Of a stretch of 64,000 nucleotides of DNA, positions 24,280 through 54,725 are shown one piece after another; position 1 is the first letter of the stretch; every line of letters begins with the position of its first letter. The DNA comes from Rhodospirillaceae bacterium (lineage in GTDB: Bacteria; Pseudomonadota; Alphaproteobacteria; Azospirillales; Azospirillaceae). The position numbers were made by a program, and so were the translations under genes. The DNA lies in the NCBI GenBank assembly GCA_037132135.1, contig JBAXPR010000003.1:16943-80942 (forward strand), read 5' to 3'. Below the pieces are notes generated by a model. It worked only from the letters and a program-made list of their open reading frames with translations, searched no databases and was not told the DNA's origin.

Positions 24280-26241
<1,962 letters not shown>

Positions 26242-31800: not shown

Positions 31801-32092
31801 AGGCCAGCGTGGTCGTCAGATCGTAACGCACGCCGCAGGGCAGGCTGAAGGCCAGCATGCCGATAAAGTGCATCGCCCAGGTGCCGAGGCCGAGCGAAAC
31901 GGCGGCCGCCGCAAGCAGGCTGAGGCGCTCAAGCGGGCGGCCGGCGGCGGCGATGCCGAGCGAGACCCGCAATGCCGCATAGGAGGCAAACACTGCCATC
32001 GCCACCGACAGCGCGACCAGAGACGGATTGTAAACGGGCAGATAGAGCCCGCCGGAGTCCGCTGCAACCGATGGTTGAATAAACTCCAGCAC
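28841..32092 (-). CDS. MHYT (7TM) - 3x PAS - GGDEF - EAL c-di-GMP turnover protein
   Basis: Three MHYT-type motifs (AMHFIGM, IMHFSGM, GTHYTAM), RTGGDEFLVLL, and QPLIDL..GAEALLRW..DDFGTGYS. GTG start. Confidence 0.9.
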   Translation of the reverse strand: MLEFIQPSVAADSGGLYLPVYNPSLVALSVAMAVFASYAALRVSLGIAAAGRPLERLSLLAAAAVSLGLGTWAMHFIGMLAFSLPCGVRYDLTTTLASMLPVILAGGVAFHLISRPACGWPRIAVAGAVLGAGIGIMHFSGMAALRMAAALRYDLSLFLLSLLAATLLAILSLGVAVIARRRLAARSTIPDLLGALAMGAAISGTHYTAMTAAVFLRLEGTAISAEGVHRGLLAAVIVSATGLLIGALLLGSLAHRYHGLARIFSTANQRLRQISMAFDTTIESVTITDADGAILSVNPAFTRITGYTESEVRGRNPRFLKSGLQDHGYYERMWQELGRTGHWQGEIWNRRKSGELYPQWLAISAVRDEAGAVQSYVAVASDISSIKRNQDDLNRLLRQNQTILDSAGEGILGIGARGEVVFVNPAALAMLGWTQGDLIGRNAHALLHHSRADGGAYPDALCPVAAVLAGGQACKVGNDYFWRRDGSGFAVDYTVTPATADAGAVVVFRDITERQRNESRVRLAARVFESSPDGIVITDRRHRILSVNHAFLTAFHTTAEDLIGHRPDSLFSGGVGRAQLRQALKALACHGSWETEAVAVRRNGDIFPASVRVSADHNPDGGLSHYVAIVSDLSQEKSAEDRIDYLSRYDALTGLPNLRMLKDYFEIARGSAGHSGNGMALVLCNLDNFKHINDTLGHAAGDEMLREIAKRLKGCIAIGTGDIVCRTGGDEFLVLLVDVPAEEAIHASIYAMRAVVSVPVQLGRYPVSLTASFGISRYPDDGKSFDLLFQKADAAIYHAKQNGRNTTRQFEASMIAYATERLTLKNDLRTAIERDEFSIHYQPLIDLSSGVIIGAEALLRWLSPDHGQVPPTRFIPIAEESGLIVPMGLWVLREVCRQGRLWREAGFPDLRLAVNISAIQLHSPNFVDTVRELITESGMPSEWLELELTESVLIAEGNQTLDVINDLKRLGVRLAIDDFGTGYSCLSYLHKLKTDKLKIDRSFVSGLTINPDSDAIVTTILQMAETMNMITLAEGVETAAQANFLKNKNCQECQGYLFGRPVPAVEFGQLVRAALESRKPAAA

Positions 32093-32324
32093 GTGTCAAA
32101 CCCTCCTCCCCCTGTCTTCCGGAAGCGGAAGGCGAGGGAACACCGGCCGGACCTGCCTCGGCAGTCACCGTTGAACCAGATAACCAAGACTTTATGTAAA
32201 TATGCTTAAAACAGTCAGGGATCGTCGGCATACCTGCCCGGTTTCTGATCGTGGAGGTTGGGGGCAGCCATGAAGACAGGAGGGTTGCAAAATGCCGCAG
32301 ACCACGACTTGGAATCATTCAAGA

Positions 32325-34646
32325 TCAACCCTCGGCACTGAGCCGTTCCAGTTCGTTTGCCGTGTCATCGATCGCGGCGGCGACAGCTTCGAGCAGGGTC
32401 GCGGCGGCCTCGACATCGGCGCAGCTCTGAAGTTGCCGGGCCAGCGCCGCCACCCGGGTGCCGCCGATGTTCAAGAACATGCCTTTTATTGCATGGGCAG
32501 CGCCATTGGCCAGCGGCAGATTCCCCTGAGTGATGGCATCCTTCAGCAGCGACAGCTGATCCCGGCTGCAGGGTATGAAGGCGGACACCAAGTCCGAGAA
32601 GGCCGCCGGCATCATCATGGTCCTGATTTCGATCAGCAGGCCGCGATCGACCAGCGGAATGTGGCCGATGCCCGGGTCGGTCGCCGAGGGGGCCGCGACC
32701 GGCGCGCAGGGGGCCGGCACCCCGTTCTGGATCCGGGCGAGCACGGCATCGACCTTGCTCCACTCGACCGGCTTGGTCAGGAAGTCGGTCAGGCCGGCGT
32801 TCATGTAGACGGTACGGTGTTCGGCCAGGGCGTCGGCGGTCAGAGCGACGATCGGAATCCCCGAGAGCGGCGGCGGCATGGTCCGGATACGGCGGGTGGC
32901 TTCGGGGCCGGCCATCACCGGCATCTGCATGTCCATCAGAATCAGGTCGAAGGGCTGGGTGGCCACGGTCTCGCAGGCCTGCAGGCCGTTCTCGACCATG
33001 GCCACCCGGTGGCCCCGTTGCTCCAGGCCGATCTTGACGATCATGCGGTTGATCGGGTTGTCCTCGGCCAGAAGGATCGACATCGGGTGCACCGTGACCG
33101 CCTCTTGCGGCTCGACCAAGAGATCGCCGGGATGGCCGGGTTGGACGACGCAAGTGAAGCCAAATAACGAGCCCCGTCCGAACTCGCTGGTGGCGCCGAT
33201 TTCACCGCCCATCAGTTCGACCAGCCGTTTGCTGATGGCCAGTCCGAGCCCGGTGCCGCCGAATTTCCGTGTCGTGCCCTTGCCGGCCTGGGAGAACGGG
33301 ATGAACAGATTGGCCATGTCGGCTTCGGAAATGCCGATGCCGGTGTCCTCGACCTCGAAGCGCAGCCGGATGGTGTCACCCGAGTCCTCATGGCGGACCC
33401 GGACGGTGACCTGACCGTCGCGGGTGAATTTGACCGCGTTGTTGATCAGGTTGCCCAGGACCTGTTTGATCCGGGTCGGGTCGCCGCGGACGAAGAGGGC
33501 GGCGAGGCCACCAGCGTCGAGGGCGATGGTGCAGCAGTTCTCCTCGGCCTTGGCCATAAACAGCAGCACCGTCTCTGCGGTCACCGCGATGGCGTCGAAG
33601 GTGACGCATTCGAGCGCCAACCGGTCGGCTTCGATCTTCGAATAGTCGAGGGTATCGTTGAGCACCGTGAGCAGGGTCCGCGCCGAGGAGCGCATGGCGT
33701 CGATGTAGAGCTTCTGATCGTCGTTGAGCGGCGTTTCGGAGAGGAAGTCGGCCATGCCGATGACCCCGGTCATCGGGGTGCGCAACTCGTGGCTCATCAT
33801 GGCAAGGAAGGCCGATTTGGCGCGGCTGGCCTCCTCGGCGGCCTCCTTGGCCCGGATCAGCTGGGCTTCCGCCGATTTGCGCTCGGTGATGTCGGAGGAA
33901 AGCACGAGGTAGCCCACCGCTTCACCGTTCTGACCATGGATCGCGGTGATCCGGGTTTCGAAGCTCCGGCCCGGCGCGCCGCGATAGGCGCTGGACTCGA
34001 AGACATGCTCGCCGGTTTGATCGACCAGCCTCAGGCCCTGCCGGACACGGGACGACGGGATGCCCTGCTCGCCATGGATGACCTCGATCGGCCGTCCGAT
34101 GACCTCGTGCTTGCGGTAGCCGAACACCCGTTCGGCCACAGGATTGAAGTAGACGATCCGCATCTCCCGATTGACGGTGACGATGCCGAGGTCGTTGGTG
34201 CAGGTCAGGATGCTGTTGAGATAGCTGCGCTCTTCAGAGAGGGCGCCCTCGGCCTGCTTGCGTGCCGTGATGTCCACCCGGCTGATCACCACGCCCTGCC
34301 AGTCCGCCTGCAGGCGCGAGGCGGTGAGGTGGAACCAGCGCTGGTCCCAGGGCACGTGATCGGCGACCTCCATGTGGAAGCTGCTGCGGGTACCGGTCAA
34401 TAGCTCCGAGAGGGCGGCGCGCAGGGCATGCCCCTGCGGGTTGACCGTCTGGTCATCCCAGCTGCAGAGCTGAAGATAGTCGTGTCCGAGCCAGTCTTCC
34501 TCGCGGCTGCGCGCCCCGCCATTGGCCAGATCATAGAGAATCCACGCCGCATTGACCATCACGACGCGCCCCTCGCCGTCGAGCACCAGAATCTGCGCCT
34601 CCATGGAGTCGATGATCGAACGCAACAGGCTGAGGCTGTATTCCAT
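32325..34646 (-). CDS. hybrid sensor kinase: PAS-PAS-HisKA-HATPase-REC-HPt
   Basis: MSHELRTPMTGVIG, DTGIGIS..GTGLGLAISKRL, ILLAEDNPINR..ILMDMQMPVMAG, and AHAIKGMFLNIG (HPt). Confidence 0.9.
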   Translation of the reverse strand: MEYSLSLLRSIIDSMEAQILVLDGEGRVVMVNAAWILYDLANGGARSREEDWLGHDYLQLCSWDDQTVNPQGHALRAALSELLTGTRSSFHMEVADHVPWDQRWFHLTASRLQADWQGVVISRVDITARKQAEGALSEERSYLNSILTCTNDLGIVTVNREMRIVYFNPVAERVFGYRKHEVIGRPIEVIHGEQGIPSSRVRQGLRLVDQTGEHVFESSAYRGAPGRSFETRITAIHGQNGEAVGYLVLSSDITERKSAEAQLIRAKEAAEEASRAKSAFLAMMSHELRTPMTGVIGMADFLSETPLNDDQKLYIDAMRSSARTLLTVLNDTLDYSKIEADRLALECVTFDAIAVTAETVLLFMAKAEENCCTIALDAGGLAALFVRGDPTRIKQVLGNLINNAVKFTRDGQVTVRVRHEDSGDTIRLRFEVEDTGIGISEADMANLFIPFSQAGKGTTRKFGGTGLGLAISKRLVELMGGEIGATSEFGRGSLFGFTCVVQPGHPGDLLVEPQEAVTVHPMSILLAEDNPINRMIVKIGLEQRGHRVAMVENGLQACETVATQPFDLILMDMQMPVMAGPEATRRIRTMPPPLSGIPIVALTADALAEHRTVYMNAGLTDFLTKPVEWSKVDAVLARIQNGVPAPCAPVAAPSATDPGIGHIPLVDRGLLIEIRTMMMPAAFSDLVSAFIPCSRDQLSLLKDAITQGNLPLANGAAHAIKGMFLNIGGTRVAALARQLQSCADVEAAATLLEAVAAAIDDTANELERLSAEG

Positions 34647-35231: not shown

Positions 35232-36728
35232 ATGCCTTCGGTGATCGCAAGCCAATTGATGTCGTGCGAGGAGGAAGCTCTTGCGCACTCGGGGTTGATT
35301 CAACCCCATGGCGTTCTTCTGTTCATCGAGCGGGTCAGCGGCCGCATCAGCCATGTCAGCGCCAATTGCGCCAGCCTGCTGGGGGTCACGCCGGAGGCTT
35401 TGCTCGGGCAGGACGGTCTGGCCTGGCTGGCCCGGCGGAGCCGGGTGCCGGTGACGCTGCCAACGATGGCCGGAAAGCGCGAGGACGTGCCCCGGATGCT
35501 TGAAACGGCGGCCGGTTCGCTGGATTTGCTGATCTCGGCCAGCGGAGCCGGCTGGCTGCTTGAGTTCGAGGCCGCCGCCCCGGTCGAGGCTGCGGCGCTG
35601 CCGGGTGAGCCGCCCCCGGCTCGGGCTCCCCCAAAGGACGAGGCGGAGATGCGCCGGGTGGAGCAGGCGCTGGTCGAGGCGATCCAGGCGCTGACCGGCT
35701 ACAGCCGGGTGATGCTCTACCGGTTTCATGCCGACTGGTCGGGCGAGGTGATTGCCGAGGCAGTGACCGGGGCCATCGGCCGTTATCTCGGGCTGCGCTT
35801 TCCCGCCTCGGACATTCCCGCCAACGCCCGGGCTCTCTATTCCCAGACTCCTTACCGGCATATCGCCGATGTCGGGGCAAAGCCGGTGGCGCTGGTTTGC
35901 GATGGCGATGCCGCGGGCCGCCCCCCGCTCGACATCACGTGGTCTGACTTGCGCTCGGTGTCGCCGATCCATCTCCAGTATCTGAAAAACATGCGGGTCG
36001 CCGCCTCGTTTTCGGTCTCGGTGATGGTCGCGGGCAGGCTCTGGGGGCTGATCGCCTGTCACCACCAGCAGGCCGGCTTTCTGCCTCTGGCGGTTCGTCA
36101 GCACAGTGTCCGGCTGGCGCGGGACTTCGTGTTTGCGCTCCAGGTCTATGAGGCGGGGGTTCGACGGCGGGTTCACGACGTCGTGACCGAATGCTCGACG
36201 GCGCTGCGTAGCGCCGTAGACGCCGGACGGCCGATCGCGGAGGCGCTGGCCGATGAACAGGGCCGGTTGCTGAAGCTGTTCGGCGCCGTCGGTGGCGCGC
36301 TGATCACCGGCACCACCGTCTGTCCGATCGGCAAGGCGCCGGACCGCCTGTTCCTGATGGCGTTGCACCAGTGGTGCCAGCGCAACCAGACCGAGGCGGA
36401 ACTGAGTTTCGACCACCGGCCCGAAGCGCTGGCGGCGTCGGCTTCGCCATCGCCTCCGTGCGGCGTGCTGGCGCTGCGCCTCCGGGCGGCCAGCCTGGGC
36501 GGCGACTGGGTATATCTCTACTGGCTGCGCCCCGAGCAGGCCCAGGAGATCGTCTGGGCCGGCAATCCCGACAAGCCGGTCGAGGTCAGTTCCGACGGTC
36601 TGCGCCTTTCGCCGCGCGAGTCCTTCGAGAAGTGGGTCGAGGTCCGCCGGGGCTATGCTTCGCCCTGGGAGATACACACCCTGTTTGCCGCCCAGCAGTG
36701 GCGCAAGCAGTTGGCGCAGTGGCTGTGA
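35232..36728 (+). CDS. bphP: bacteriophytochrome photosensory core (PAS-GAF-PHY) with no output domain
   Basis: Cys12 in LMSCEEEALAHSGLIQPHGVLL (biliverdin-Cys context). GAF motifs RFPASDIPANARALY, SPIHLQYLKNMRVAASFSVSV and LWGLIACHH. PHY tongue motif SPRESFEKW. The protein ends about 10 aa after the PHY domain. Confidence 0.9.
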   Translation: MPSVIASQLMSCEEEALAHSGLIQPHGVLLFIERVSGRISHVSANCASLLGVTPEALLGQDGLAWLARRSRVPVTLPTMAGKREDVPRMLETAAGSLDLLISASGAGWLLEFEAAAPVEAAALPGEPPPARAPPKDEAEMRRVEQALVEAIQALTGYSRVMLYRFHADWSGEVIAEAVTGAIGRYLGLRFPASDIPANARALYSQTPYRHIADVGAKPVALVCDGDAAGRPPLDITWSDLRSVSPIHLQYLKNMRVAASFSVSVMVAGRLWGLIACHHQQAGFLPLAVRQHSVRLARDFVFALQVYEAGVRRRVHDVVTECSTALRSAVDAGRPIAEALADEQGRLLKLFGAVGGALITGTTVCPIGKAPDRLFLMALHQWCQRNQTEAELSFDHRPEALAASASPSPPCGVLALRLRAASLGGDWVYLYWLRPEQAQEIVWAGNPDKPVEVSSDGLRLSPRESFEKWVEVRRGYASPWEIHTLFAAQQWRKQLAQWL

Positions 36729-36759
36729 CCGCGTCCGCGGCGCGCAGGATGGGTGATTG

Positions 36760-38133
36760 ATGACCGACGCGCCGACGCGGAGGACTCGGACCCGGCACCC
36801 GAAGAAAGCGGGCGCGCGCGTCGTGGCCAGGGCGGTCCAGGACGAGGTCAATCTGGCGCTGGACCGCCATGAGGCGTTTCTCAAGCGGCGGGTCGGCGGC
36901 ATCCGGGCGGTGTTGAAGTTTCGCGATCTCTCCCACATCGATCTCTCAGGGCGGAACCTCTCGGAGTGCGACTTCACCGGCGCCACCCTCTTCGGCTGCA
37001 ATCTCCGCGACACCAAGCTGCACCACGCCAATCTCTTTGCCGTCGATCTGCGCTCGGCGATCATCGAGAATACCGATTTTCACCGCGCCGATCTGCGTGG
37101 CGCCGCCCTGCGGGGCGCGCGGATGAACGACGCCATCCTGACCGAAGCGGATCTGCGGTGCGGCGTAATGCTGCAACCGGGCATCGGCGGCGAACTGGTC
37201 GACCTCAAACACCGGATCGGCACCAGCGACATGACCATCGCGTCGGCCCAACGGGCCGACATGACCCGGGCCAAGATGAGCGATTCCTTCATCAGGCAGA
37301 CCGACCTGACCGACGCCATCCTGCGCAATGTCCGCTTCGTGCGCGCCGACCTCAGCCATTCCAACCTGACCGGCGCCACTTTGGAGGGCGCCGATCTCAC
37401 CGAGGCCAACCTCTCGGGCGCGATCCTGCACGGCGCCATCCTGTCGCGCAGTTGTCTGATGAACACCAATCTGCGCGATGCGGATTTGATCGGGGTGGTG
37501 CTGGATTCGGTCGATTTTTCCCAGGCCGATCTGACCAACGCCAGCATCGCCAGCCGTGTCGAAAACCTGGGTGGGCAGATCGGCGCCATCATCACCGCCC
37601 ATCTGGAATGGATCCAGTCGAATGGTCGCGAGGGCAAGAGGGTCAGTCTGGCCCGGACCGATATCGGGGGCGAAGACTTCAGTTCACTCAACCTTTCTGC
37701 CGGCGATTTCAGCTACGCGATCATGACCGGGGTCAATCTGACCAAATCATGTCTGGCCATGGCCGACTTGTCGTTTGCCGATCTCAGGGGCGCCGATCTG
37801 CGGCATGCCGATCTGCGCGGCGCCAATCTCAAGCGGGCGACGCTGAATGGCGCCTCGCTGCAGGGCGCCCGCCTCTCGGCGATGGCGCTCAGCCTGTCGA
37901 CCAACACCCAATGGCCGGCCAATCTCGAAAGCGCCCGTCTGCGCAGCGCCAATCTCGCCGGGTCCGATTTGCGCCAGGCCGTGCTCAACCAGTGCGATCT
38001 CACCCACGCCGACCTGCGTCAGGCGGATCTGCGCCGGGCGTCGCTGCGCAACGCAACCCTCACCCACGCCAATCTGAGCGGCGCCCAGCTCGAGGGCGCC
38101 GATCTCGAGGGCACGATCGACCTCAAGATCTAA
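36760..38133 (+). CDS. pentapeptide-repeat protein (457 aa)
   Basis: Long runs of A(D/N)LxG-type pentapeptides (ADLRGAALRGARMNDAILTEADLR, ADLSHSNLTGATLEGADLTEANLSGAIL, ...). Starts 31 nt after the bphP stop with AGGA about 11 nt upstream. Confidence 0.85.
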   Translation: MTDAPTRRTRTRHPKKAGARVVARAVQDEVNLALDRHEAFLKRRVGGIRAVLKFRDLSHIDLSGRNLSECDFTGATLFGCNLRDTKLHHANLFAVDLRSAIIENTDFHRADLRGAALRGARMNDAILTEADLRCGVMLQPGIGGELVDLKHRIGTSDMTIASAQRADMTRAKMSDSFIRQTDLTDAILRNVRFVRADLSHSNLTGATLEGADLTEANLSGAILHGAILSRSCLMNTNLRDADLIGVVLDSVDFSQADLTNASIASRVENLGGQIGAIITAHLEWIQSNGREGKRVSLARTDIGGEDFSSLNLSAGDFSYAIMTGVNLTKSCLAMADLSFADLRGADLRHADLRGANLKRATLNGASLQGARLSAMALSLSTNTQWPANLESARLRSANLAGSDLRQAVLNQCDLTHADLRQADLRRASLRNATLTHANLSGAQLEGADLEGTIDLKI

Positions 38134-39593
38134 GCCCGGTATGGCACCACGCGCTTGGGTGGGAAGCGGACGATGGCGGTGGTGCCGAGATTGGGCTCGC
38201 TGGAGATGGTCAGCGAGCCGCCATGGAGTTCGGCCATCACCCGCGTGATGTAAAGCCCAAGCCCGGTGCCCTGGTTGCGGGTGGTGTAGGGGTTGCCGAC
38301 CCGGCCGAACGGCTTCATCAAATTCGCCAGATCCTCGGCGCTGATCCCGATACCGGTGTCCTCGACCAGAAGAACCAAGGAGCCGTCCTCGTCACAGTAG
38401 CAACTGGTGGTGACCTGGCCGCCGGCCTGGGTGTACTTGACAGAGTTTGACAAAAGATTGATCAGAATCTGCCGCAACCGGCGAAAATCCGCATAGAGCG
38501 GCACCATATAGGGTATCGGCTGATACAGCAGATCCACGCCTTTTTCGCGGGCGATCCGGCTGACCATCTGGAGCGAGGAAGTGATGGCCAGATGGACATC
38601 GATGATCTGGCAGTCCAGCACCACCTTGCCGGCCTCGACCGCGGCGACGTCGAGGACATCGTTGACGATCGAGAGCAGATGCTTGCCCGAGGTGTTGATG
38701 ATCTCGGCGTATTCGCGATAGGTGTCGTGTTGCGCCTGCAGGATGTCCTGCTGGATGATTTCGGAGAAGCCGATGATCGAATTCAGCGGCGTGCGCAGCT
38801 CGTGGCTCATGCAGGCCAGGAAATGGGTCTTGGCCAGATTGCTCAGCTCGGCCTCGATCTTGGCTTCGCGCAGGTCTTCTTCCATCTGTTTGCGCTGGGT
38901 GATTTCGCGCAAGGAGGTCAGATAGGCCGCCTGCTCCAGCCAGTTGATCTTGACCACCCGCATCTCGGCGATCCGCCGGCCGCCGATCTCGATTTCGACG
39001 GCGCCGTCACCGACCACCGGAAAGCCGAACTGCTGGTTGATCAGGTCGCCGATCGGCCGGCCGAAGAGATCGGAGGCCGCCGGGTTGGCGAACAGCACGA
39101 TGCCGTCGATGTTGACCACCACCATGCTGTCGGGGAAGGTCGCGATCAGTTGGCGCAGGCTGGTCTCTGTCCGCTGCCGCTGCAGGAGATGGTGGAGCAG
39201 GCGCGGCACGATCCGGTGATCGAGATTCAGCTTGGCTAAAAACTCGGCCTCGTAGCCATGCACCGTGGTTGGGCTGACGCCGTTCGCGTCGGCTTCGCCG
39301 AGGACCACGATCGGCACCGCCTCGCCGACCACGGCCCGGACCTGGGCCAGAGTGTCCATGCCCTGGCTGTCGGGAAGGTCGAGATCGAGGATCACCATGT
39401 CAAAGGGATCGGTGCGCGCGATCTGCCTGGCCGAAGAGAGATCGGCGACCCGGTGGACGGAGAAGTCGACGGCGCTGCCTTCGCTCAGCACCTTTTCAAC
39501 GAAGCTGGCATCGGCGGGATCGTCATCGACCAGCAGCAGGCGGATCAGCTTGTCAGGTTGGGGTCCCGGTCGGGTCTGGACTGACTCCATCAC
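38130..39593 (-). CDS. REC-PAS-HisKA-HATPase histidine kinase (last gene of the kai operon)
   Basis: LLLVDDDPAD..VILDLDLPDSQG (REC), MSHELRTPLNSIIGFSEI (H-box), DTGIGIS..GTGLGLYITRVMAELHGG. ATGA overlap with the kaiC stop. Confidence 0.9.
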   Translation of the reverse strand: MMESVQTRPGPQPDKLIRLLLVDDDPADASFVEKVLSEGSAVDFSVHRVADLSSARQIARTDPFDMVILDLDLPDSQGMDTLAQVRAVVGEAVPIVVLGEADANGVSPTTVHGYEAEFLAKLNLDHRIVPRLLHHLLQRQRTETSLRQLIATFPDSMVVVNIDGIVLFANPAASDLFGRPIGDLINQQFGFPVVGDGAVEIEIGGRRIAEMRVVKINWLEQAAYLTSLREITQRKQMEEDLREAKIEAELSNLAKTHFLACMSHELRTPLNSIIGFSEIIQQDILQAQHDTYREYAEIINTSGKHLLSIVNDVLDVAAVEAGKVVLDCQIIDVHLAITSSLQMVSRIAREKGVDLLYQPIPYMVPLYADFRRLRQILINLLSNSVKYTQAGGQVTTSCYCDEDGSLVLLVEDTGIGISAEDLANLMKPFGRVGNPYTTRNQGTGLGLYITRVMAELHGGSLTISSEPNLGTTAIVRFPPKRVVPYRA

Positions 39594-41119
39594 GTGCCTC
39601 CCGAAAACATGCGTTCAAGATACTCCCGCTCCTCGCCCAGGGTGTAGGTGATGCTGCCGGTGAGAATGCCGCCGATACCGTGGAAGGTGCCGGCAATCTC
39701 CATACCATGGTCGGTGACGACATATTCGCGGATCTGCTTGTCGTGCCACGAGCCGCGCATCTTCAGCACGGTGATCGCCCGGTGCATGTTGCCCTGAAGC
39801 TCGACATAGCGCAGAAGCACGATCGAATCGGTGATGGTCGAGATGTGGGTCTCGGTAATCGACTCGCCGCCCATCAGCATGGTCGTGGTGTTGGTGAACA
39901 TGCCGGCGATTTCGCGGTGCTTGATGAAGCTGGTCAGCGCGATCACGAATTCGCGGAATGACTTCATGGTCGACACCCGTTCCAGCGCCGACAGGCTGTC
40001 GATCGCGATCGCGGTCGGCTTGAAGCGGTCGATCTCGCGCTGGATCTGGATCAAATGGTCTTCAAGGCCCATGGTTTCGGGATAGCGGCAGATGATGCGG
40101 AGCAGGCCCTGCTCCTCGGCGCTCTCGAAATCGACGCCCCAGGAGGTGGCGTTGCGCACCAGCTGCTCGCGGTTTTCCTCGAAGGCGAACAGGATCACCC
40201 GGTGACCGGCCTCGATGCCGCCCTTCATGAAGTGGCTGACCATCAGGGTCTTGCCGGTGCCGGTGGCGCCGCTGACCAGAATGATCGAATCCCGGAACAC
40301 GCCGCCGCCGCACATCTTGTCGAAGTCGGCGTTGCCCGAAGAGGTTCGGATGTTGGACGATTTCTGCTTCAGTTCGATCGCCGAGAGCGGAATGATCGTC
40401 ACCCCGGTCGAGGGGTCGATGGTGAACGGATACTCGCCCTTCTGGTGGGTGGTGCCGCGGAACTTGAGGATTTCGATCGTCCGGCGACGCTTCTCCTGCT
40501 CCAGCGGGTTGCGCAGGATGATCACGTTGTCGGCGACGAACTCCTCGACGCCGAAGCGCGCGATCTCGCCATATTCATGGACCCGCTCGATCGTGATCAG
40601 CGAGGTCACGCCCAGTTGGCGCATGCCCGAAACCACCCGGTGCAACTCCCGGCGCACGACGTTGCTGTCGGCGAACTGCGGGAAGATGGCGCCGACGGAA
40701 TCCAGAATCACCCGCGTTGCCCCGACCTTGCTCACCGCGTGCTCGATGCGGGCGAGCAGGGCCGAAAGATCGTAAGGCCCGGCCTCGCAGACGGTTTCGC
40801 CGGGCTCGGGCGAGGCGTCGACCAGGGCGATCCGCTTCTCGGCGATATAACGCCGGATCTCCCAACCCAGGCTGCCGACGTTGCGCGCAAGGTCCTCGGG
40901 CGATTCCTCGAAGGTGACGATGACGCCGTTCTCGTTGAACTGCTCGATGCCACTGACAAGGAACTGCAGGGAGAAAATCGTTTTGCCACTGCCTGCGGTG
41001 CCGGCGAGCAGTGTGGTCCGTCCCATGGGAATGCCGCCGTGGGCGATCTGATCGAAACCGGCGATTCCCACCGGGGTCTTTTTCAGGACCACCTCGTTCA
41101 GCGCGTGCGTCGTCGTCAT
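39590..41119 (-). CDS. kaiC: circadian-clock ATPase/autokinase KaiC homologue (509 aa)
   Basis: Duplicated RecA-like halves with Walker A GTAGSGKT and GATGTGKT. Catalytic Glu pairs VTFEES and FAFEEN. Phosphosite context ETHISTITDSIVLLRY and KMRGSWHDKQIREY. Confidence 0.95.
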   Translation of the reverse strand: MTTTHALNEVVLKKTPVGIAGFDQIAHGGIPMGRTTLLAGTAGSGKTIFSLQFLVSGIEQFNENGVIVTFEESPEDLARNVGSLGWEIRRYIAEKRIALVDASPEPGETVCEAGPYDLSALLARIEHAVSKVGATRVILDSVGAIFPQFADSNVVRRELHRVVSGMRQLGVTSLITIERVHEYGEIARFGVEEFVADNVIILRNPLEQEKRRRTIEILKFRGTTHQKGEYPFTIDPSTGVTIIPLSAIELKQKSSNIRTSSGNADFDKMCGGGVFRDSIILVSGATGTGKTLMVSHFMKGGIEAGHRVILFAFEENREQLVRNATSWGVDFESAEEQGLLRIICRYPETMGLEDHLIQIQREIDRFKPTAIAIDSLSALERVSTMKSFREFVIALTSFIKHREIAGMFTNTTTMLMGGESITETHISTITDSIVLLRYVELQGNMHRAITVLKMRGSWHDKQIREYVVTDHGMEIAGTFHGIGGILTGSITYTLGEEREYLERMFSGGT

Positions 41120-41451
41120 TGGCCAACTTCCTCTTCGCTAACATTCTTGAGCAGCTCAGGATCGTTGGTCCGATCAGATTTTCGGAGATCCAGTCCAAGC
41201 CCGAACAACACCTTGTCCCGCTGGCTCAGGTCGCCGATGACCTTGCGGGCCGGCGCGGGAAACCGTTTCACCAGGGTCGGCGTGGCAAGGATTTTCTCCT
41301 GCTCGGCGATCTCCGGATTCTCCAGGATATCAATGATTTCGTATTCACAAATCCCCTTCAGCTCGTTCTGACAGAGCAGGCGCAGGTTCATGACGGCATG
41401 TTGGGAAGCCAGGGAGCATCCCGTAATATAGAGACTCAAAATGCACTTCAT
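41116..41451 (-). CDS. kaiB: KaiB homologue (111 aa)
   Basis: LSLYITG..IDILENPEIAEQEKILATPTLVKRFPAPARKVIGDLSQRDKVL matches the conserved KaiB core. ATGA overlaps on both sides. Confidence 0.9.
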   Translation of the reverse strand: MKCILSLYITGCSLASQHAVMNLRLLCQNELKGICEYEIIDILENPEIAEQEKILATPTLVKRFPAPARKVIGDLSQRDKVLFGLGLDLRKSDRTNDPELLKNVSEEEVGQ

Positions 41452-42200
41452 ATAGGTTGCCTCCCCGAGAACAGTCGCCTAAAGCCGGTGCGATAATACT
41501 CCACCAGCATGCCCATCATTTCGAGGGCAAACAGGCGGCTATCGGCGGCAAAGGTATAGGCGAATCCCCTGTCGAGGGTCCTCCTGATGACATCAAGTGA
41601 TGCGGCATGAACGTCTATCATATCCCGGGGCGTCGCCCCAAGATTTCCAAGCTTCGTCGCCAGAACTTCCATGCCCGCATTCGGTTTGGCGATTTTCTTG
41701 GCAAGATGGTCAATGTACAGTTGGAGAAGGCCCTGATAGTCGGTCTGCAACTTGGCGAACAACGCCGCCTCGCGTTCCCGAATCGGCGAGACTCCGGCCA
41801 TCGCCCGGGTCACCGGCAAGCCGACCGGCGCCGCGGACAGAGCATGATCGCTGCGCGCCACCATCCGTAGCAGTTTGGCCTGTCCCTCGCGATAGCGCCT
41901 GAGGGCGAATGACACGATGGTACGCAGGCTTTCCGGGGTCATCTTGGTCTTGCTGAGATAGTCCTGCGCCCCGGCATCGATGCATATGACGCCGATGCCG
42001 TCGTCATCGGAGCCGGTCAGAACCACGGTGGGAACCTCGGCGGCGGTGGCGACGATTTTCCGGAGGGTGTCGAGGCCGTTGGAGTCCGGAAGTGTCAGGT
42101 CGAGCAGAACCAGGTCGAACACCGAAGAGGCGAGATGAGCCACCGCGTCCCTGAGGGTCTCCACCGAAACGATTTCATAACGAACATCCGCCGCTGCCAT
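41448..42200 (-). CDS. response-regulator receiver (lacking beta1-alpha1) fused to a KaiA/RsbU-like C-terminal helical domain; KaiA3-like candidate
   Basis: FDLVLLDLTLPDSNG, VVLTGSDD and YLSKTK are receiver hallmarks. The C-terminal ~110 aa (..YQGLLQLYIDHL..RDMIDVHAASLDVIRRTL..SRLFALEMMGMLVEYYR) resembles, from memory, the KaiA C-terminal domain. It is the first gene of the kaiB-kaiC operon. Confidence 0.75.
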   Translation of the reverse strand: MAAADVRYEIVSVETLRDAVAHLASSVFDLVLLDLTLPDSNGLDTLRKIVATAAEVPTVVLTGSDDDGIGVICIDAGAQDYLSKTKMTPESLRTIVSFALRRYREGQAKLLRMVARSDHALSAAPVGLPVTRAMAGVSPIREREAALFAKLQTDYQGLLQLYIDHLAKKIAKPNAGMEVLATKLGNLGATPRDMIDVHAASLDVIRRTLDRGFAYTFAADSRLFALEMMGMLVEYYRTGFRRLFSGRQPI

Positions 42201-42286
42201 CAGACTCGGCCGATGACCAGAGAATCACTCCGGTTGTCCTCGACCAGAAGCAGGCGACTGATGGTCCTCGGGGACTGCAACTCCAT
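42200..42286 (-). pseudogene. 28-codon ORF encoding the missing beta1-alpha1 of the downstream receiver domain (split or frameshifted REC)
   Basis: My translation is MELQSPRTISRLLLVEDNRSDSLVIGRV*, and its TGA overlaps the next ATG (TGATG). A -1 shift at 42200-42203 would read ..VIGRVLMAAADVRYEIV.., a continuous receiver domain. Confidence 0.6.
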
Positions 42287-42377
42287 GCACTGTTCCTGAC
42301 TGTGTGATGCGGCCAGCAACAAGCGATGTAGCGGGCAACCCGGGTCGAAGATTGGACAATACCGGGGATTTTCTGGG

Positions 42378-42390
42378 TTGTCCAGGACAA
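42378..42390. promoter_or_regulatory. perfect palindrome TTGTCCAGGACAA upstream of the kai operon (candidate operator)
   Basis: 6-bp arms around one central base. Read on the minus strand it lies in a 17-nt spacer between TTGCTA (42391-42396) and GAAAAT (42368-42373). A second GGACAATA copy sits 31 nt away (42354-42361). Confidence 0.4.
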
Positions 42391-42510
42391 TAGCAATGAC
42401 CGAAAAAGAACACTTTTGTGCTCGATGAGCATCCCAAGAATATCATTTAAGTGCCGGATAAATGCGCTCGACTTGTGGGGTCTTTAGCTTGATCCGGGGA
42501 AGGCGGCCCG

Positions 42511-42536
42511 GCGCCGGGACGGAACCGTCCCGGCGC
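42511..42536 (-). terminator. GC-rich palindromic hairpin downstream of the secreted-protein gene
   Basis: GCGCCGGGACGG/CCGTCCCGGCGC arms are near-contiguous (10-11 bp stem after loop formation). No U-tract, so terminator function is uncertain. Confidence 0.35.
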
Positions 42537-42544
42537 GCCCGCGT

Positions 42545-44128
42545 CTAGCGGCCGGCCGGCCGGGGCGCGGCGGCGGGCGGCGGGGTCTTGCGGCCCAGGC
42601 GGTCCTTCAGGCCTTGCACCAGCATGGTGATGTCGGCGCCATTAAGGAGAATGGCCCCGGTCCCGGCGACCTCGACCTTGTAGGTCCGGGCCTCACGGCC
42701 GGCGTCGTCCTTGGCCGGCAGGCCCATGACCTGAACCATGGTCAGCATCGAGAGCATGGTCCTGGTCTCTTCGGAGAGGGTATTTGGGCCCGGCGCCGGT
42801 TGCAGTTCCTTCATCGCGGCGTCGAAGCCGCGGATGGTCATATCGTATTGTGCGACCATGCCCATCGCCGCCGCGGCGTCGTATTGGGCCTGACCGGTCA
42901 GCTTGACCGTGGTCGCCGGGGTGTCGATGCCAAAGCGTTCGATGGTCAGGTGAGTGCCGGCCTCCGTCAGGGCGGCGTCGGCATCGGGCAGAAAGGCCTT
43001 CAGCGCCTGCTCGCCGCTGACGGTGTCCGGCGCCAGGGCCCGGTCGAGGGCCTGCCACAGGGCGTCATTGGGCAGATTGCGCGCGCTGAGGGAGAAGCGG
43101 GCGGCGGTGGGCAGGAATTCATGGAGGGTCGGCGGCGGCGTCACCGCCAGCGGGCCATGCTCGTAGGTGACCGAAAAGGTCGAGCGGCCCTGTTCGAGGC
43201 CGGCGAGCGCGGTCTGATAGTCGAAGGTCCCGAGGGATACCCCGGTCTCGATCATCGGCACTTTCACCATCAGATCGGCCAGATGGATGTGCAGGGCGGC
43301 ACCGTCGAACAGATCGTGGAGGCGGGTCAGGTAATGGCGGGCCGAGATCAGGGGGCCGGGCTTGGCCTTGGCGTCGGGCGGCGGCGGTGCCGCGGCATCC
43401 GGGGCCACGGCCGGCGGGTTCGGCGTGCGCCGGCTGAGCGCGAGCGCGATGTCGAGTCCCGAGACCCGGCCATCGATCATCGCCGAGCCCAGGCGGACCA
43501 TGTCATTGCCTTCGGCATACGGCACCACCACCGAGCCGAGGGCCAGGGCGACCGGACCACCCCACCGTCCGGGCTGGCTTTCGGCCAGGGCGCCGGTCAG
43601 GGAAAGGGTGGCGATGGTGATGGCGTGGCCGTCGGTGGGCGCGGTCAGGCGGAGATCGCGCAGGGAAACCTGCAACCCGGTCAGGGTATGGACTGCAGGT
43701 TGCCAGTGTCCCTCGATTTTCTGCGCGCCGAGCGCAATCTCCAGTTCGGGCCTGCCGGCCTTGTCGGCGAGGGTGAGGGCGGAGGGCAGGGCCAGGCTGA
43801 AAGCCCAGCCGCCGTCGGCTTCGGGCCGCAGATCGAGGATGAGGGTGCCAAGGGCGAGTTGCCGGCTGGTGCCGATGTGGGCGGTGACCTGCGGCAGTTC
43901 AGCGCGGTAGTGGTCGCCGGCGGGCGTGACCGTGACCGGCCCCTGCCACTGGCAGCGGAGCGGCAGAGAATAGGTCGCGAGCGGTTGGCAGGGGTCGGTG
44001 CTGAAGTCTGCCGCCAGTCGGGCCGCGGTTTCGGCGGTGATCGCCAAGGGCTCGGCGGCGTGCACGGCGCCGACCGAAATCCCCAGCAGGATGGCGCCGA
44101 GTATCGCTGTCATCCGGTCGCGGCTCAT
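42545..44128 (-). CDS. secreted/periplasmic protein of unknown function (527 aa)
   Basis: Signal peptide MSRDRMTAILGAILLGISVGAVHAAEP behind GAGGGGAG. Ala/Pro/Leu-rich mature protein with no motif I can name. Confidence 0.7.
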   Translation of the reverse strand: MSRDRMTAILGAILLGISVGAVHAAEPLAITAETAARLAADFSTDPCQPLATYSLPLRCQWQGPVTVTPAGDHYRAELPQVTAHIGTSRQLALGTLILDLRPEADGGWAFSLALPSALTLADKAGRPELEIALGAQKIEGHWQPAVHTLTGLQVSLRDLRLTAPTDGHAITIATLSLTGALAESQPGRWGGPVALALGSVVVPYAEGNDMVRLGSAMIDGRVSGLDIALALSRRTPNPPAVAPDAAAPPPPDAKAKPGPLISARHYLTRLHDLFDGAALHIHLADLMVKVPMIETGVSLGTFDYQTALAGLEQGRSTFSVTYEHGPLAVTPPPTLHEFLPTAARFSLSARNLPNDALWQALDRALAPDTVSGEQALKAFLPDADAALTEAGTHLTIERFGIDTPATTVKLTGQAQYDAAAAMGMVAQYDMTIRGFDAAMKELQPAPGPNTLSEETRTMLSMLTMVQVMGLPAKDDAGREARTYKVEVAGTGAILLNGADITMLVQGLKDRLGRKTPPPAAAPRPAGR

Positions 44129-44391
44129 GAGTTTGGCTCCCCTCAGGTCTGATCGGGTGGTTATAGCAAAGAACGCAGCCGGTCGTGAGCCTGAAGCACA
44201 GGGACCGCGCCGCGGCGTCATGACGGCCCGGCATGGTCAGGGCGGCGCTGATGCCATGGCTGATGGTTCGGTGCCGGCGCGGCCGGCTTCGGCGCCGGGT
44301 CGCCCGATCCCCGCGTCGCTGCCGAAGCGGTGGCCCCCCGGGGGGGGCGCGGGCCGCTTGCGCCCGGCGATGATCAAACGTCCATTACATT

Positions 44392-44406
44392 AGGACTTAC
44401 AGTCCT
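44392..44406. promoter_or_regulatory. inverted repeat AGGACT-TAC-AGTCCT upstream of the CarH-like gene (candidate operator)
   Basis: 6-bp perfect arms. Followed by GTCCTGAACA (44402-44411) and GTCCTGGACAA (44432-44442), 30 nt apart. Confidence 0.35.
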
Positions 44407-44543
44407 GAACAGACTCGTGATATACCAAACCGTCCTGGACAAACAGCCCTGATGGCGAACGCCACCGGTTGGGCGCGGTCCAGTCTCGATCAGTGACGGT
44501 TGTCAGGCCGATTTCATATATCGATTTTACCCCAGAGCGTCCC

Positions 44544-45506
44544 ATGTCACACACTTATGATCAGCCACTACGGTCTGTTTCCTCTCTCGATTGTGGGGCG
44601 GCCGGCGTGGCGGTGCCGGTGATTCTGATCGAGAACGAAACCGGGCTGACCAAGGAGGTGATCCGCAAATGGGAGAGTCGCTACGGATTCCCGCGCCCTG
44701 AGCGCGACGAGAACGGCGACCGCATCTATCCGCCGGATCAGGTGGTGCGGCTGCGTCTGATCCGGCGGCTGCTTGGGGCCGGCATGCGTCCGGGCAAAGT
44801 CGTCGGCCTTGAACTGGAGACGCTGGAGCGGTTGACCGAGCAGATGTCCCTTGAGCCCCCGGGGACGACATCCGACGGCTTTCAACAGGTGCTCGACGCC
44901 TTGTCGGGGCACGATCTGCCGCGTCTGACCCACCTGCTGAAGGGGCAGCTGATCCGGCAGGGCCTGTCGGTGTTCGTGCGGGAAACCGTGGCGAGGCTCA
45001 ATGTTCTGATCGGCGAATGCTGGCTGCGCGGCGAGATCAATATCTTCGAGGAACACCTTTATACCGAGGCGGTCTGCGACCTTCTTCATGAGTCGATCCG
45101 GACCGTGATCAATTTTTCGGGGTCGCCCCGGGTCTTGCTGACCACCGCCCCCGGCGAACTTCATACCATCGGCCTTCTCATGGCCAGCACGATCCTTTCC
45201 TTGGAGGGGGCTCACTGCATCAGCCTCGGCGCGCAGATGCCGGCGGTGGAAATCGTCACCGCGGCCAAGGGCTGCGCCATCGATGTCGTCGGCCTGTCCT
45301 TCAGCATCGCCCGTCCGGCCCGCGATGCGGCGCTGTTCCTGCGCGATCTTCGCGCGCGGCTGGATCCGGCGGTCGAAATCTGGGCCGGTGGAGTCGGCGT
45401 GTCGCGCCTGCGCCGGATGGACGGCGTGCGCTACATGCCGGACCTTGAAAAGGTCAGCCCGACCATCACGGCCTGGCGCAAAAGCCGGGCCGGCGCCGCG
45501 TCTTAA
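44544..45506 (+). CDS. MerR-family HTH + four-helix bundle + cobalamin-binding domain regulator (CarH/LitR-type B12 photoreceptor candidate)
   Basis: MerR HTH IENETGLTKEVIRKWESRYGFPRPERDENGDRIY. W-x9-E-H motif CWLRGEINIFEEH (W codon 45021, EH 45051-45056). B12 motif GELHTIG (His codon 45162), then GLSFS and AGGVG. Confidence 0.85.
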   Translation: MSHTYDQPLRSVSSLDCGAAGVAVPVILIENETGLTKEVIRKWESRYGFPRPERDENGDRIYPPDQVVRLRLIRRLLGAGMRPGKVVGLELETLERLTEQMSLEPPGTTSDGFQQVLDALSGHDLPRLTHLLKGQLIRQGLSVFVRETVARLNVLIGECWLRGEINIFEEHLYTEAVCDLLHESIRTVINFSGSPRVLLTTAPGELHTIGLLMASTILSLEGAHCISLGAQMPAVEIVTAAKGCAIDVVGLSFSIARPARDAALFLRDLRARLDPAVEIWAGGVGVSRLRRMDGVRYMPDLEKVSPTITAWRKSRAGAAS

Positions 45507-45531
45507 GCGGCCGGAAGGCCGGGCGCGGGGC

Positions 45532-47508
45532 TCAGGCGGCCAGCGGCGAGCGGCCGTCCATGAAGCCGTTGACCCGCATCGCCGTTGCCTCATCGAGACG
45601 GAATTGCAGGTGGGTGTCGGTCTCCGAGCGGCGGGCGATCCGGGCCTGGATCGGAGCGACGCCGGGAATCGTCAGTTCGACCGGAGAGCCCACCGGCAGA
45701 TCGACCCGGGCTTCCAGGCTGGCGCCGCCGAGCGAGACATCGTGCATCCGGCAGTCGCGCCGCTGATCGGCCCAGCCGAGCCCGACCATGATGTCGACGG
45801 TCATCCGTTCATAGTGGCGGCGCTCGCCGGCATCGCGAATCGCGGTCAGGAAGGACTCGACCTCGGCGCTCAGGTCGCGGGCGGTTTCCGAGACGTGGCG
45901 GGACGAGGTCAGCACTTCGGCCGAAGCCCCGGTGGTATGCGCGATCGCCTCGGCGACGATCGCCAGCGCGGCGGCGGCTTCCTGCGTGCTTTGGGTGGCG
46001 GCCCTGGCGTTGCCGGAAATTTCCTGGGAGACGCCCTCCTGGCGCCGGGCCGCCTGGGCGATCACGCCGGTGGCCTGATTGACGGCGTCGATGGTCGCGC
46101 CGAACCGCTTGATCGTGCCCACCGCCTCCTCGGCCGCGTCCTGGATGCCCTGGATCTGCGAGCCGATGTCACCGGCGGCCCGGGCGCTCTGGCTGGACAG
46201 ATTCTTGACCTCTCCGGCGACCACCGCGAAGCCCTTGCCGGCGTCGCCGGCCCGCGCGGCCTCGATGGTGGCGTTGAGCGCCAGCAGATTGGTCTGGGAG
46301 GCGATCGACTGGATCAGGCTGAGGATTTCCCCGATCCGGCCGGCCTTTTCGGCCAGGCTGCCGACGATGGCGTCAGAGCGCTCGGCCTCGTCGACCGCGG
46401 TGCGCATCACGCCGTCGGAGCGCTCGAGCTGCAGGGCGATCTCTTCGACCGTGCCCCGCAGCTTGCCCGCCTCGCCGGCGACGATATCGACCTTGCCGGC
46501 GGCGGTCCGGGTCGCCTCCGAGACGGTGGTCGCCTGCTGGGCCGCCCGCCGTGCCACCGCGGACATGTTCTCGGCAGTGCTCTGCATCGATGAGGCGGCG
46601 TCGGCCAGCATCGTCAGCACGCCGCTGACGCCGCCGCTGAAATCCTGGATCAACTGGTTGGCGGCGGCCTGCCGGCGACGCTTGGCCTCTTCCTCGTCGC
46701 GCCGGCGCCGGCGCAGGTTGTCCATGGCGATGGCGTTCTGGCGGAACACCTCCAGCGCCCGGGCCAGGGCGCCGATTTCATCCCGGCGGTCGGCATCGCG
46801 GATCTCGATCGCGGTGTCACCGTCGGCCAGACGCCCCATGCCGGCGACCATGCGGCCGACCGGACGGGTGATCGAAGCCGTGATCGACCAGGACAGCAGG
46901 ATGCCAAGCACGAAGCCGCCGACGGCAAGGCTGATCGACAGGGCATTGGAGCGCCGGTAATGCTCCTCGCTGTGATGATAGAGCGAGCCGGCCTGCTGGC
47001 GCTGGAGGTCGAGCAGCGCGCGCAGCGGGGTCGCCGCCTTGCGGAATTCGGCGGTGCTGTCGCGGGCGAGGCGGCTGGCCGCGGCCTCCGGGTTCCCCGA
47101 AGCAACGGCGGCGACGACGCTGGTATAAAAGGCCGAAAGCGAGGCCAGCCCGGCATCGATGGTCCGGGCGAGGGCTTGTTCGTCCTCATCGAGCGGCGTG
47201 TTCCGGTAGGCCTGCCACTGGGAGGCCAATTCCTTGACGTGCTTTTGGAGTTCGACCGACAGTAGCGGCAGCTTCGCCGGATCGCGGCTGAGCAGGGCGT
47301 CGAAGGCGCGGATGCGCACCCGGTGCATGGTATCGGCGACGGCGCTGAGATGAGCCATGGCCAGGGTCTTGTCCTCGTAGACGTCCTGGAAGTCGTGGTT
47401 CATATCGGCCATGCCGCTGAGGCAGGCGATGCTGATCGCGGCGATGATCGCAAGCAGTGTCCCGGTCAAAATTGCGAGGCGAACACTGAAATTGACATTT
47501 CTCAACAT
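45532..47508 (-). CDS. methyl-accepting chemotaxis protein with C-terminal PilZ domain (second copy)
   Basis: TM-sensor-TM-HAMP, [20 protein letters not shown], then a C-terminal 96 aa with RRHYER ... DVSLGG (PilZ). Start placed at ATG 47508 behind GAGGGGGAG. Confidence 0.85.
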
Positions 47509-47777
47509 AACCAGCTCCCCCTCGGTTCCTGAACCGGCCCGGGCAGAGCTTGCCAGGATGAACCGATCGAACAACGCGGAGTGACCATAAACCAGAACGA
47601 GTCCTGATGGCCATTATATAGGTGGTTTATCGCGGCGTGGTCTATCCATTTTATACGACAACTATCTGTCGGCCCTGCTCCATCAGAAAAGCGAAGTCCA
47701 GTACAGATAATAGAATATTAACCATGGCGTCAAATCACTGGTTGACTTCGAGAAATGGTGATGCCGGTGCCGCGGCC

Positions 47778-49400: not shown

Positions 49401-49413
49401 CGGGGCTGAGGTC

Positions 49414-52398: not shown

Positions 52399-54725
<2,327 letters not shown>

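Follow-up and report, generated by a model that had tools for sequence, protein, structure and literature searches.

The closest described relatives of the system considered here come from Synechocystis, where KaiA3 raises the phosphorylation of KaiC3, KaiB3 opposes it, and the three proteins, combined in vitro, cycle with a period of about 24 h in a rhythm that is damped and temperature-compensated (PMC11372060). The KaiC3 proteins of Cyanothece and Synechocystis both oscillate with their own KaiB and KaiA3 (PMC12081879). Outside cyanobacteria, kaiA homologues and kaiABC operons were reported by Dvornyk and Mei (2021), and KaiA3 orthologues with kaiA3B3C3 synteny were reported in Rhodospirillum and Bradyrhizobium by Köbler et al. 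(2024); their list includes Bradyrhizobium sp. BTAi1/ORS278, Rhodospirillum rubrum (Rru_A3293, named also by Geron et al., 2024), Roseiflexus, Chloroflexus and Chloroherpeton (PMC11372060). Here, an operon of this kind is examined in a stretch of 64,000 nucleotides ("the window") from contig JBAXPR010000003.1 of a Rhodospirillaceae metagenome-assembled genome (MAG). With good confidence it can be read as kaiA3-kaiB-kaiC-histidine kinase, of the published KaiA3B3C3 type. The first-pass annotation of this DNA had noted KaiA as generally regarded as restricted to cyanobacteria, a view that the list of Köbler et al. makes outdated. The locus is, of course, one more example of operons already reported between 2021 and 2024, and no new discovery.

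The operon consists of four open reading frames (ORFs) on the minus strand. These, with the two domains of the first of them, are as follows.

42200-41448, minus strand: gene 1, the kaiA3-like gene as read (250 amino acids), comprising the receiver from strand beta2 on and, beyond a linker helix, the KaiA-like C-terminal domain (ORF list, Pfam, BLASTP and AlphaFold2, AF2)
41919-42182, minus strand: receiver domain (REC) of gene 1, residues 7-94 of the 250-residue ORF (Pfam PF00072 Response_reg, E 2.6e-16)
41487-41768, minus strand: KaiA-like four-helix C-terminal domain of gene 1, residues 145-238 (AF2, Foldseek, profile against PDB, hhalign)
41451-41116, minus strand: kaiB (111 amino acids), in ATGA overlap with gene 1 (Pfam KaiB, 80.7 bits against a cutoff of 27)
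41119-39590, minus strand: kaiC (509 amino acids), double-domain circadian type, in ATGA overlap with kaiB (NCBIfam)
39593-38130, minus strand: sensor histidine kinase (487 amino acids), with REC at residues 20-104, PAS at about 146-235, HisKA at 254-322 (H264) and HATPase_c at 369-480 (Pfam)

The first-pass annotation had placed these four genes where the ORF list has them, and its calls on their content stand as well: a receiver (Response_reg) followed by a helical C-terminal region in gene 1; the motifs ATPTLVKRFP and GDLS in KaiB; both Walker A loops, the glutamate pairs of TFEES and AFEEN and the Ser-Thr pair of ETHISTITD in KaiC, without a long C-terminal extension; and a fourth gene of REC-PAS-histidine kinase type, which Pfam resolves as REC-PAS-HisKA-HATPase_c. 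It had also chained all four genes by 4-nucleotide ATGA overlaps. This is correct for genes 1 and 2 and for genes 2 and 3, but not for genes 3 and 4, where the junction reads GTGATG and a GTGA overlap exists only if the kinase starts at GTG 39593. The kinase probably starts instead at ATG 39590, overlapping the kaiC stop by 1 nucleotide, because GGAGG sits 6 nucleotides ahead of that ATG.

Gene 1 encodes a protein of the KaiA3 family, and not a canonical KaiA. This is seen most directly when its product is set beside the KaiA3 sequences that Köbler et al. (2024) give in their Supplementary Dataset 1. BLASTP aligns the product with the orthologue from Bradyrhizobium sp. BTAi1 at 34% identity over 234 residues (E 5e-34) and with Synechocystis KaiA3 (Sll0485) at 28% over 238 residues (E 2e-23), both alignments spanning both domains; the R. 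rubrum orthologue follows at 30% over 192 residues (E 1e-15). The motifs PRD..(I/L)(D/E).H and GRL..LE(L/M)MG.L..(Y/F)YR are common to gene 1 and the published KaiA3 proteins, and the C-terminal domain of gene 1 has the family motifs PRD..D.H and RL.ALEMMG.LV.YYR. Like the published genes, gene 1 stands directly upstream of kaiB with a stop/start overlap (here ATGA), and the KaiC that comes next is of the same length, about 505-509 residues, with the same tail motif. The likeness extends to architecture, a phospho-acceptor receiver joined to a KaiA-like domain. The window protein differs from Synechocystis KaiA3 in its placement, falling in a "LALEMMG" clade with Bradyrhizobium rather than in the cyanobacterial clade.

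The connection to KaiA itself runs through the C-terminal domain. AF2 models this domain as four helices (residues 145-168, 174-186, 191-208 and 211-238) with a predicted local distance difference test score of 89.2. When the model is searched against PDB with Foldseek, KaiA occupies ranks 1-7 save for one designed protein, with probability 0.98-1.0, TMq 0.62-0.69 and TMt up to 0.82; over the leading KaiA structures (1q6a, 5jwr, 1r8j, 1v2z and 4g86) the probability spans 0.94-1.0. A profile built from 28 C-terminal domains of the window clade was searched against 177,635 PDB sequences; its four best matches are KaiA C-terminal domains (E 0.019-0.19, the top ones at 0.019-0.023), aligned end to end, with the top KaiA matches coming from Thermosynechococcus, Anabaena and Synechococcus. 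Adding published KaiA3 sequences to the profile brings KaiA to E 0.0022-0.03, with eight of the nine top matches being KaiA, and hhalign against two canonical KaiA C-terminal domains gives P 6e-4 over 87 columns. The first-pass annotation had paired the last two helices with those of KaiA (DVHAASLD with EIHVELMD, SRLFALEMMGMLVEYYR with YRLTLIDVIAHLCEMYR), and HMMER gives the same alignment.

KaiA is reached, however, only by family profiles and by fold search. Searches with a single sequence, whether all of gene 1 or its C-terminal 134 residues, return nothing KaiA-like from Pfam, NCBIfam or PDB (phmmer). The placement of this domain in the KaiA/RsbU superfamily, as first proposed, is accordingly borne out by the profiles, which rank KaiA first in PDB, and not by any one sequence.

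Four-helix bundles are common, of course, and gene 1 might encode a plain response regulator, the likeness of its helical tail to KaiA being accidental. The lack of a Pfam KaiA match would fit this, as would the Foldseek E-values, which are weak (0.08-1.6) in a list that also holds other helical proteins. Yet chance would then have had to bring KaiA of three species, end to end, to the top of a profile search of PDB, and to bring KaiA first again, with probability near 1.0, in an independent fold search. The homology to KaiA3 runs through the C-terminal domain, and the gene almost always adjoins kaiBC whatever its N-terminal module. Chance resemblance is strongly disfavoured, and we give it almost no credence.

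Gene 1 is, then, a KaiA3 relative of KaiA, and its distance from the canonical protein can be specified. With canonical KaiA (S. elongatus, T. elongatus, Anabaena; 1r8j, 1q6a, 1v2z, 1r5q, 5c5e) it shares the four-helix fold of the C-terminal domain, the A-B-C order of genes and, within helices 1, 3 and 4, certain conserved positions (Y..; (I/V)H..(L/M)D; RL; YR). Identity, however, is about 18-22%, and the protein lies under the Pfam KaiA gathering threshold (PF07688, 22.2 bits). The His of the "AHLCEMYR" helix is replaced by Leu or Met in the window family, the host is not a cyanobacterium, and the N-terminal domain is a true receiver rather than a pseudo-receiver that has no phospho-acceptor Asp.

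A second structural relative is the N-terminal domain of RsbU from Bacillus subtilis (1w53), likewise a four-helix domain for dimerisation and recruitment of partners. It is found in the Foldseek list at rank 42 (probability 0.35, TMq 0.44), and cyanobacterial KaiA3 proteins give weak matches to Pfam RsbU_N (E 0.025-0.05). For the window protein, however, the match is far weaker than that to KaiA, PF08673 is not matched, and a PP2C phosphatase context is lacking.

The partners of gene 1 were compared with the KaiB3 and KaiC3 of the kaiA3B3C3 loci of PCC 7424 and ATCC 51142. KaiB is 56% and 52% identical to the cyanobacterial KaiB3 proteins, and its KaiB matches in PDB have E 1.6e-22. It scores under the NCBIfam cutoffs for the circadian KaiB equivalogs (89.9 against 110 bits; 85.3 against 145.3). 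Gene 2 would on these scores encode a protein of the KaiB family that is not a KaiB1 equivalog and that fits a KaiB3-like assignment.

KaiC carries the following features, of which all but the last were located by motif search.

40979-41002, minus strand: first Walker A motif, GTAGSGKT (residues 40-47)
40901-40915, minus strand: first catalytic glutamate pair, in TFEES (residues 69-73)
40247-40270, minus strand: second Walker A motif, GATGTGKT (residues 284-291)
40172-40186, minus strand: second catalytic glutamate pair, in AFEEN (residues 312-316)
39836-39841, minus strand: phosphorylation sites S427 and T428, in ETHISTITD (residues 423-431)
39593-39658, minus strand: C-terminal tail, residues 488-509, GSITYTLGEEREYLERMFSGGT, which by alignment corresponds to the A-loop and KaiA-binding segment of KaiC1

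This is the complement expected of a circadian, double-domain KaiC, and the curated NCBIfam cutoffs are exceeded as well (PRK09302, 721.6 against 408; TIGR02655, 667.3 against 546.25 bits). Identity is 61-62% to KaiC3 and 58.5% to KaiC1 of Thermosynechococcus. In PDB, the protein scores 607-696 bits against KaiC of the cyanobacterial type, versus 369 bits against the KaiC2 type of Rhodobacter. Its alignment with S. elongatus KaiC takes in the A-loop and the tail and extends to residue 507.

The comparison with KaiC2 is instructive. Proteobacterial kaiB-kaiC operons tied to two-component signalling are known from Rhodopseudomonas palustris and from Rhodobacter sphaeroides, where KaiB and KaiC2 form an hourglass (8dba; Pitsawong et al., 2023; PMC10076222), and the window operon resembles them in this. 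Rhodobacter KaiC2, however, has 568 residues and a C-terminal extension of about 50 residues that makes a coiled coil between hexamers. The window KaiC has 509 and no such extension, its alignment with 8dba stopping at residue 490, and it has a KaiA-like partner. Judged by its sequence, the window KaiC is of the cyanobacterial type, and not of the KaiA-independent KaiC2 type.

The tail of KaiC is of special interest. Its motif, E(R/V)x(R/H/Y)Lxx(M/L)F, is common to cyanobacterial KaiC3 and to every KaiA3-linked KaiC examined, and is absent from KaiC1. Residues 488-509 are proposed as the docking site of the KaiA3-like domain, to which that domain would bind.

The kinase sets the operon apart from its cyanobacterial counterparts compared here. 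Genes for REC-PAS kinases are missing from both of the cyanobacterial kaiA3B3C3 loci examined; in non-cyanobacterial KaiA3 loci, across several phyla, a REC-PAS head is conserved after kaiC, followed by a HisKA or HisKA_2 core, often but not always with a C-terminal REC. In the window kinase, the REC itself appears to lack the conserved Ser/Thr after beta4, reading VVLGEADA where relatives have VVLSG or VVLTG.

The receiver of gene 1 is of a different character from that of KaiA. Among 112 members of the family, the phospho-acceptor Asp and the Lys are present in all, the conserved Thr in 110 (with Ser in the other 2), and the two acidic positions in 110 and 109. The 250-residue ORF has the Asp as D34 (42099-42101), which is D63 in the numbering of the repaired protein, with T62 and K84. 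By these residues the receiver of the family is a true phospho-acceptor, catalytically complete, unlike the pseudo-receiver of KaiA. The R. rubrum orthologue differs here, its receiver being degenerate where the window clade keeps all catalytic residues. How the receiver is oriented toward the C-terminal domain is not defined by the full-length AF2 model (predicted template-modelling score 0.55).

A mechanism can be suggested by analogy with KaiA3B3C3 of Synechocystis and with canonical KaiABC. Here, a dimer of the C-terminal domain would bind the tail or A-loop of KaiC and promote autophosphorylation in CII. KaiB would bind phosphorylated KaiC and either counteract or sequester KaiA3, yielding a cycle of phosphorylation that may be damped or hourglass-like. 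Phosphorylation of the receiver Asp would gate the activity of KaiA3 and so serve as input, and the REC-PAS kinase of the same operon would couple the state of KaiC to two-component signalling, as input, output or both. On this analogy, we infer that the operon may be a timer.

The same parts could be arranged differently. In such an arrangement, the kinase phosphorylates the receiver of the gene 1 product, whose helical domain docks on KaiB-KaiC to read the clock, much as in CikA or SasA; the product is then an adaptor or output response regulator that does not activate KaiC. A true phospho-acceptor in place of the pseudo-receiver of KaiA would suit this role, and the receiver resembles the kinase's own REC (in tblastn, the kinase query cross-matches the REC region of KaiA3). 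Further, the residues by which KaiA and KaiC make contact are poorly conserved in KaiA3 and KaiC3 (Köbler et al., PMC11372060). But Synechocystis KaiA3, with the same architecture and the same phosphorylation site, does stimulate the phosphorylation of KaiC3, in vitro and in vivo, and the tail of KaiC co-varies with the presence of KaiA3. An adaptor without activating function is regarded as very unlikely.

As it stands in the window, however, gene 1 is not whole. The missing part lies just upstream.

42200-42286, minus strand: ancestral 5' part of the kaiA3-like gene, today an ORF of its own with 28 codons (MELQSPRTISRLLLVEDNRSDSLVIGRV, then a stop), with receiver strand beta1 and the acidic E-D pair

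Nearly all homologues, among the 120 matches listed, have about 265-300 residues, mostly 277-279. They start M-x(8-10)-RLLLVEDNxxDA and keep ..LLLVED..DA..(I/V)RRCL-MASA.. in one frame. In the window, MELQSPRTISRLLLVEDNRSDSLVIGRV makes up this N-terminus; its codons run from ATG 42286 to 42203, in a frame different from that of the 250-residue ORF. The latter is therefore a 5'-truncated reading of gene 1, since its homologues are longer and the N-terminus that it lacks is found in another frame. Relative to GTC-(C/T)TG-ATG in homologues, one base is missing between 42203 and 42202. The stop of the short ORF (TGA, 42202-42200) overlaps ATG 42200 by 1 nucleotide, as TGATG. ATG 42286, which is also the end coordinate given to the operon in the first-pass annotation, has a Shine-Dalgarno sequence, AGGAA, ahead of it; none lies ahead of ATG 42200. 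The Pfam receiver match begins only at profile position 22 (of 22-108 covered), so that the N-terminal end of the domain is missing, and in an AF2 model of the 250-residue form only beta3-beta5 appear as strands. The phosphorylation-site Asp is retained in this copy, with beta1 and the acidic pair out of frame.

The lesion might of course be a matter of sequencing. The 250-residue product is 100% identical to an NCBI entry, "MAG: response regulator [Rhodospirillaceae bacterium]", and the junction is identical in three assemblies: the window, an NCBI metagenome contig and a Logan re-assembly. An error of one particular assembler is unlikely, because the metagenome contig, which differs from the window by 5 single-nucleotide polymorphisms in 4,754 nucleotides, and the Logan re-assembly both have the same junction. 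A broader artefact of sequencing or assembly, with an intact KaiA3 of 279 residues in the organism, gains from the fact that this is a MAG, that the three assemblies may share the same or related read sets, and that all close homologues are intact. It loses by the agreement of three separate assemblies, one of them 5 polymorphisms away elsewhere, and by the site itself, GTCTGATGG, which is no homopolymer. We regard it as improbable.

Programmed -1 frameshifting was also considered. A slip at GTC-TGA would read GTC-CTG-ATG and give back the V-L-M of the homologues. This was rejected because the site is not preceded by a slippery heptamer of the form X XXY YYZ, and because a deletion of 1 nucleotide explains the sequence equally well.

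The overlapping TGATG would permit translation to reinitiate. The product as encoded is likely to be a protein of 250 residues, its receiver crippled but its KaiA-like domain intact. Such a protein might be active without a gate, or else unstable and inactive. In canonical KaiA, the C-terminal domain by itself is enough to stimulate KaiC.

This last fact bears on a further possibility, that gene 1 is a pseudogene decaying in the population. The operon would then be a KaiB-KaiC-kinase module for an hourglass or for stress, like those of Rhodopseudomonas, Rhodobacter and Legionella, or would itself be on its way out. The lesion costs the receiver its beta1 strand and its acidic pair, and it is present in all of the window, the metagenome contig and the Logan re-assembly. 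The restart codon has no Shine-Dalgarno sequence, and the GC content of third codon positions is 0.72 in the 250-residue ORF, versus 0.84-0.86 in kaiC and the kinase. Nevertheless, there is but a single lesion; the other 250 codons form an uninterrupted frame with 72% identity to an intact homologue, the stop/start overlap favours reinitiation, and kaiB, kaiC and the kinase are intact with all their catalytic motifs. Decay to a pseudogene is held to be unlikely.

Several observations weigh against a KaiA3B3C3-type system in the window, and they are best set out together. Neither the full gene 1 protein nor its C-terminal domain alone gives a Pfam match to KaiA or RsbU_N, even at E<=10, and the sequence statistics at the level of KaiA are all marginal (E about 1e-2 to 1e-3; hhalign probability 28%). 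A small neighbour-joining tree, midpoint-rooted, does not unite the window KaiC clade with cyanobacterial KaiC3; group III of Mukaiyama et al. (2025) joins proteobacterial KaiC with cyanobacterial KaiC3 (PMC12081879). The poorly conserved contact residues mentioned above belong here also. Reconstitutions of the KaiA3 type have to date been cyanobacterial only, with no proteobacterial KaiA3 among them, and the KaiC of R. rubrum, tried only with Synechococcus KaiA, gave no oscillation (PMC12081879). Last, the three assemblies all have the frameshift in gene 1, whose receiver, as encoded, cannot fold normally.

The first of these points is answered by controls. The validated KaiA3 of Synechocystis itself falls under the Pfam KaiA cutoff (17.7-19.2 against 22.2 bits), and KaiA3 of PCC 7424 draws no Pfam KaiA match at all. 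Because a validated KaiA3 is also below threshold, the failure of the window protein reflects the divergence of its clade and does not count against homology. The KaiA3B3C3-like operon put forward by the first-pass annotation is supported by the homology to KaiA3, by the profiles, by the fold and by adjacency to kaiBC. Its suggestion that the three-component timer may be "complete" is doubtful for this copy because gene 1 is frameshifted.

Adjacency to kaiBC is a property of the family. Of 28 full-length relatives of gene 1 in GTDB species genomes, 26 have kaiB immediately downstream, and kaiC then follows wherever the contig continues. The co-occurrence outside cyanobacteria that the early annotation had proposed to survey is thereby found. 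The hosts are Alpha-, Beta- and Gammaproteobacteria, Acidobacteriota, Chloroflexota, Gemmatimonadota, Myxococcota, Verrucomicrobiota and Thermodesulfobacteriota, which makes at least seven phyla. Two full-length KaiA3-like genes have neither kaiB nor kaiC in the downstream DNA available, one in a Dehalococcoidia MAG (L005, 6001-6720) and one in an unclassified MAG (L013, 6001-6693). These could be orphan copies, or they could belong to split clusters, as in Synechocystis.

The C-terminal domain is more widespread still. An exhaustive profile search for it collected 1,643 clusters at 50% identity, 1,072 of them at E<=1e-10. Most have the architecture of REC followed by this domain. In others it is fused to REC-REC, REC-PAS-PAS, REC-PAS-GAF or PAS, or to a membrane 4HB_MCP-HAMP-PAS sensor resembling a chemoreceptor. 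Two of the unusual fusions were checked, at loci including L087 (gene 4001-6052) and L089 (132-1883), and both adjoin kaiB or kaiC. It is conceivable, and we offer it tentatively, that the KaiA3-like C-terminal domain is a widespread, modular "KaiC-activator" output domain, joined to varied sensors in at least seven phyla and standing consistently beside kaiB-kaiC.

Upstream of the operon, one candidate for a promoter was noted.

42356-42384, minus strand: sigma-70-like promoter candidate, TGGACA-17-TATTGT, weak and tentative, about 70 nucleotides before ATG 42286

It falls in the intergenic gap of 258 nucleotides at 42287-42544 and is the sole match upstream of the operon. By itself it is not evidence, because 1 site was found where 0.9 would be expected by chance. 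The scan for promoters and terminators was uninformative generally, with counts at the level of chance, and a scan of 36000-46000 with Rfam found nothing. Directly upstream of the operon, on the same strand, lies a gene for a protein of 558 residues (42545-44221, minus strand) with a signal-like or transmembrane-like segment at its N-terminus and without a Pfam match.

Two genes upstream of the operon is a regulator of the MerR family that has a B12-binding domain and is similar to the light-dependent CarH/LitR type (44469-45506, plus strand). On the other side, a pair of genes converges on the operon and overlaps the stop of the kinase by 4 nucleotides. The first (35232-36728, plus strand) encodes a bacteriophytochrome photosensory module of 498 residues, PAS_2-GAF-PHY with an N-terminal Cys and without an output domain; the second, 29 nucleotides after it (36757-38133, plus strand), a pentapeptide-repeat protein of 458 residues. 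A functional link of these photoreceptor genes to the kai operon was tested and set aside; they are not found at other KaiA3 loci, so that any link would be local at best.

The operon as a whole lies within a region dense in signalling genes (24280-34646 and 45532-57057). Its neighbours include two chemoreceptors that are MCP-PilZ fusions (26543-28588 and 45532-47574), a protein with MHYT-PAS-GGDEF-EAL domains (28841-32092), three hybrid kinases with histidine kinase, REC and Hpt domains (24280-26241, 32325-34646 and 49414-52398), a PAS kinase (52395-54725) and a further MCP (55060-57057).

What, then, does this locus add? Operons of the KaiA3 type are the best candidates for true three-component Kai oscillators outside cyanobacteria, as opposed to KaiBC hourglasses. 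To these the window contributes an alphaproteobacterial example from a Bradyrhizobium-like clade, with a receiver that is fully competent at the level of the clade and with a conserved REC-PAS kinase. Its intact relatives, in Bradyrhizobium, Jiella, Acuticoccus and Consotaella, are the better subjects for experiment, the window copy being frameshifted. The frameshifted copy has an interest of its own: here nature has supplied a "receiver-less" variant, from which one could learn if the KaiA-like domain still functions when ungated.

The wider implication concerns the C-terminal domain, whose breadth and variety of fusions exceed the five non-cyanobacterial genera published. Should it indeed prove to be a modular activator of KaiC, three-component oscillators of the KaiABC type would be a common possession of bacteria that are neither photosynthetic nor cyanobacterial. 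These oscillators might sustain themselves or be entrained by signals, and phosphorylation or the sensing of ligands would act directly as the gate of their activating arm.

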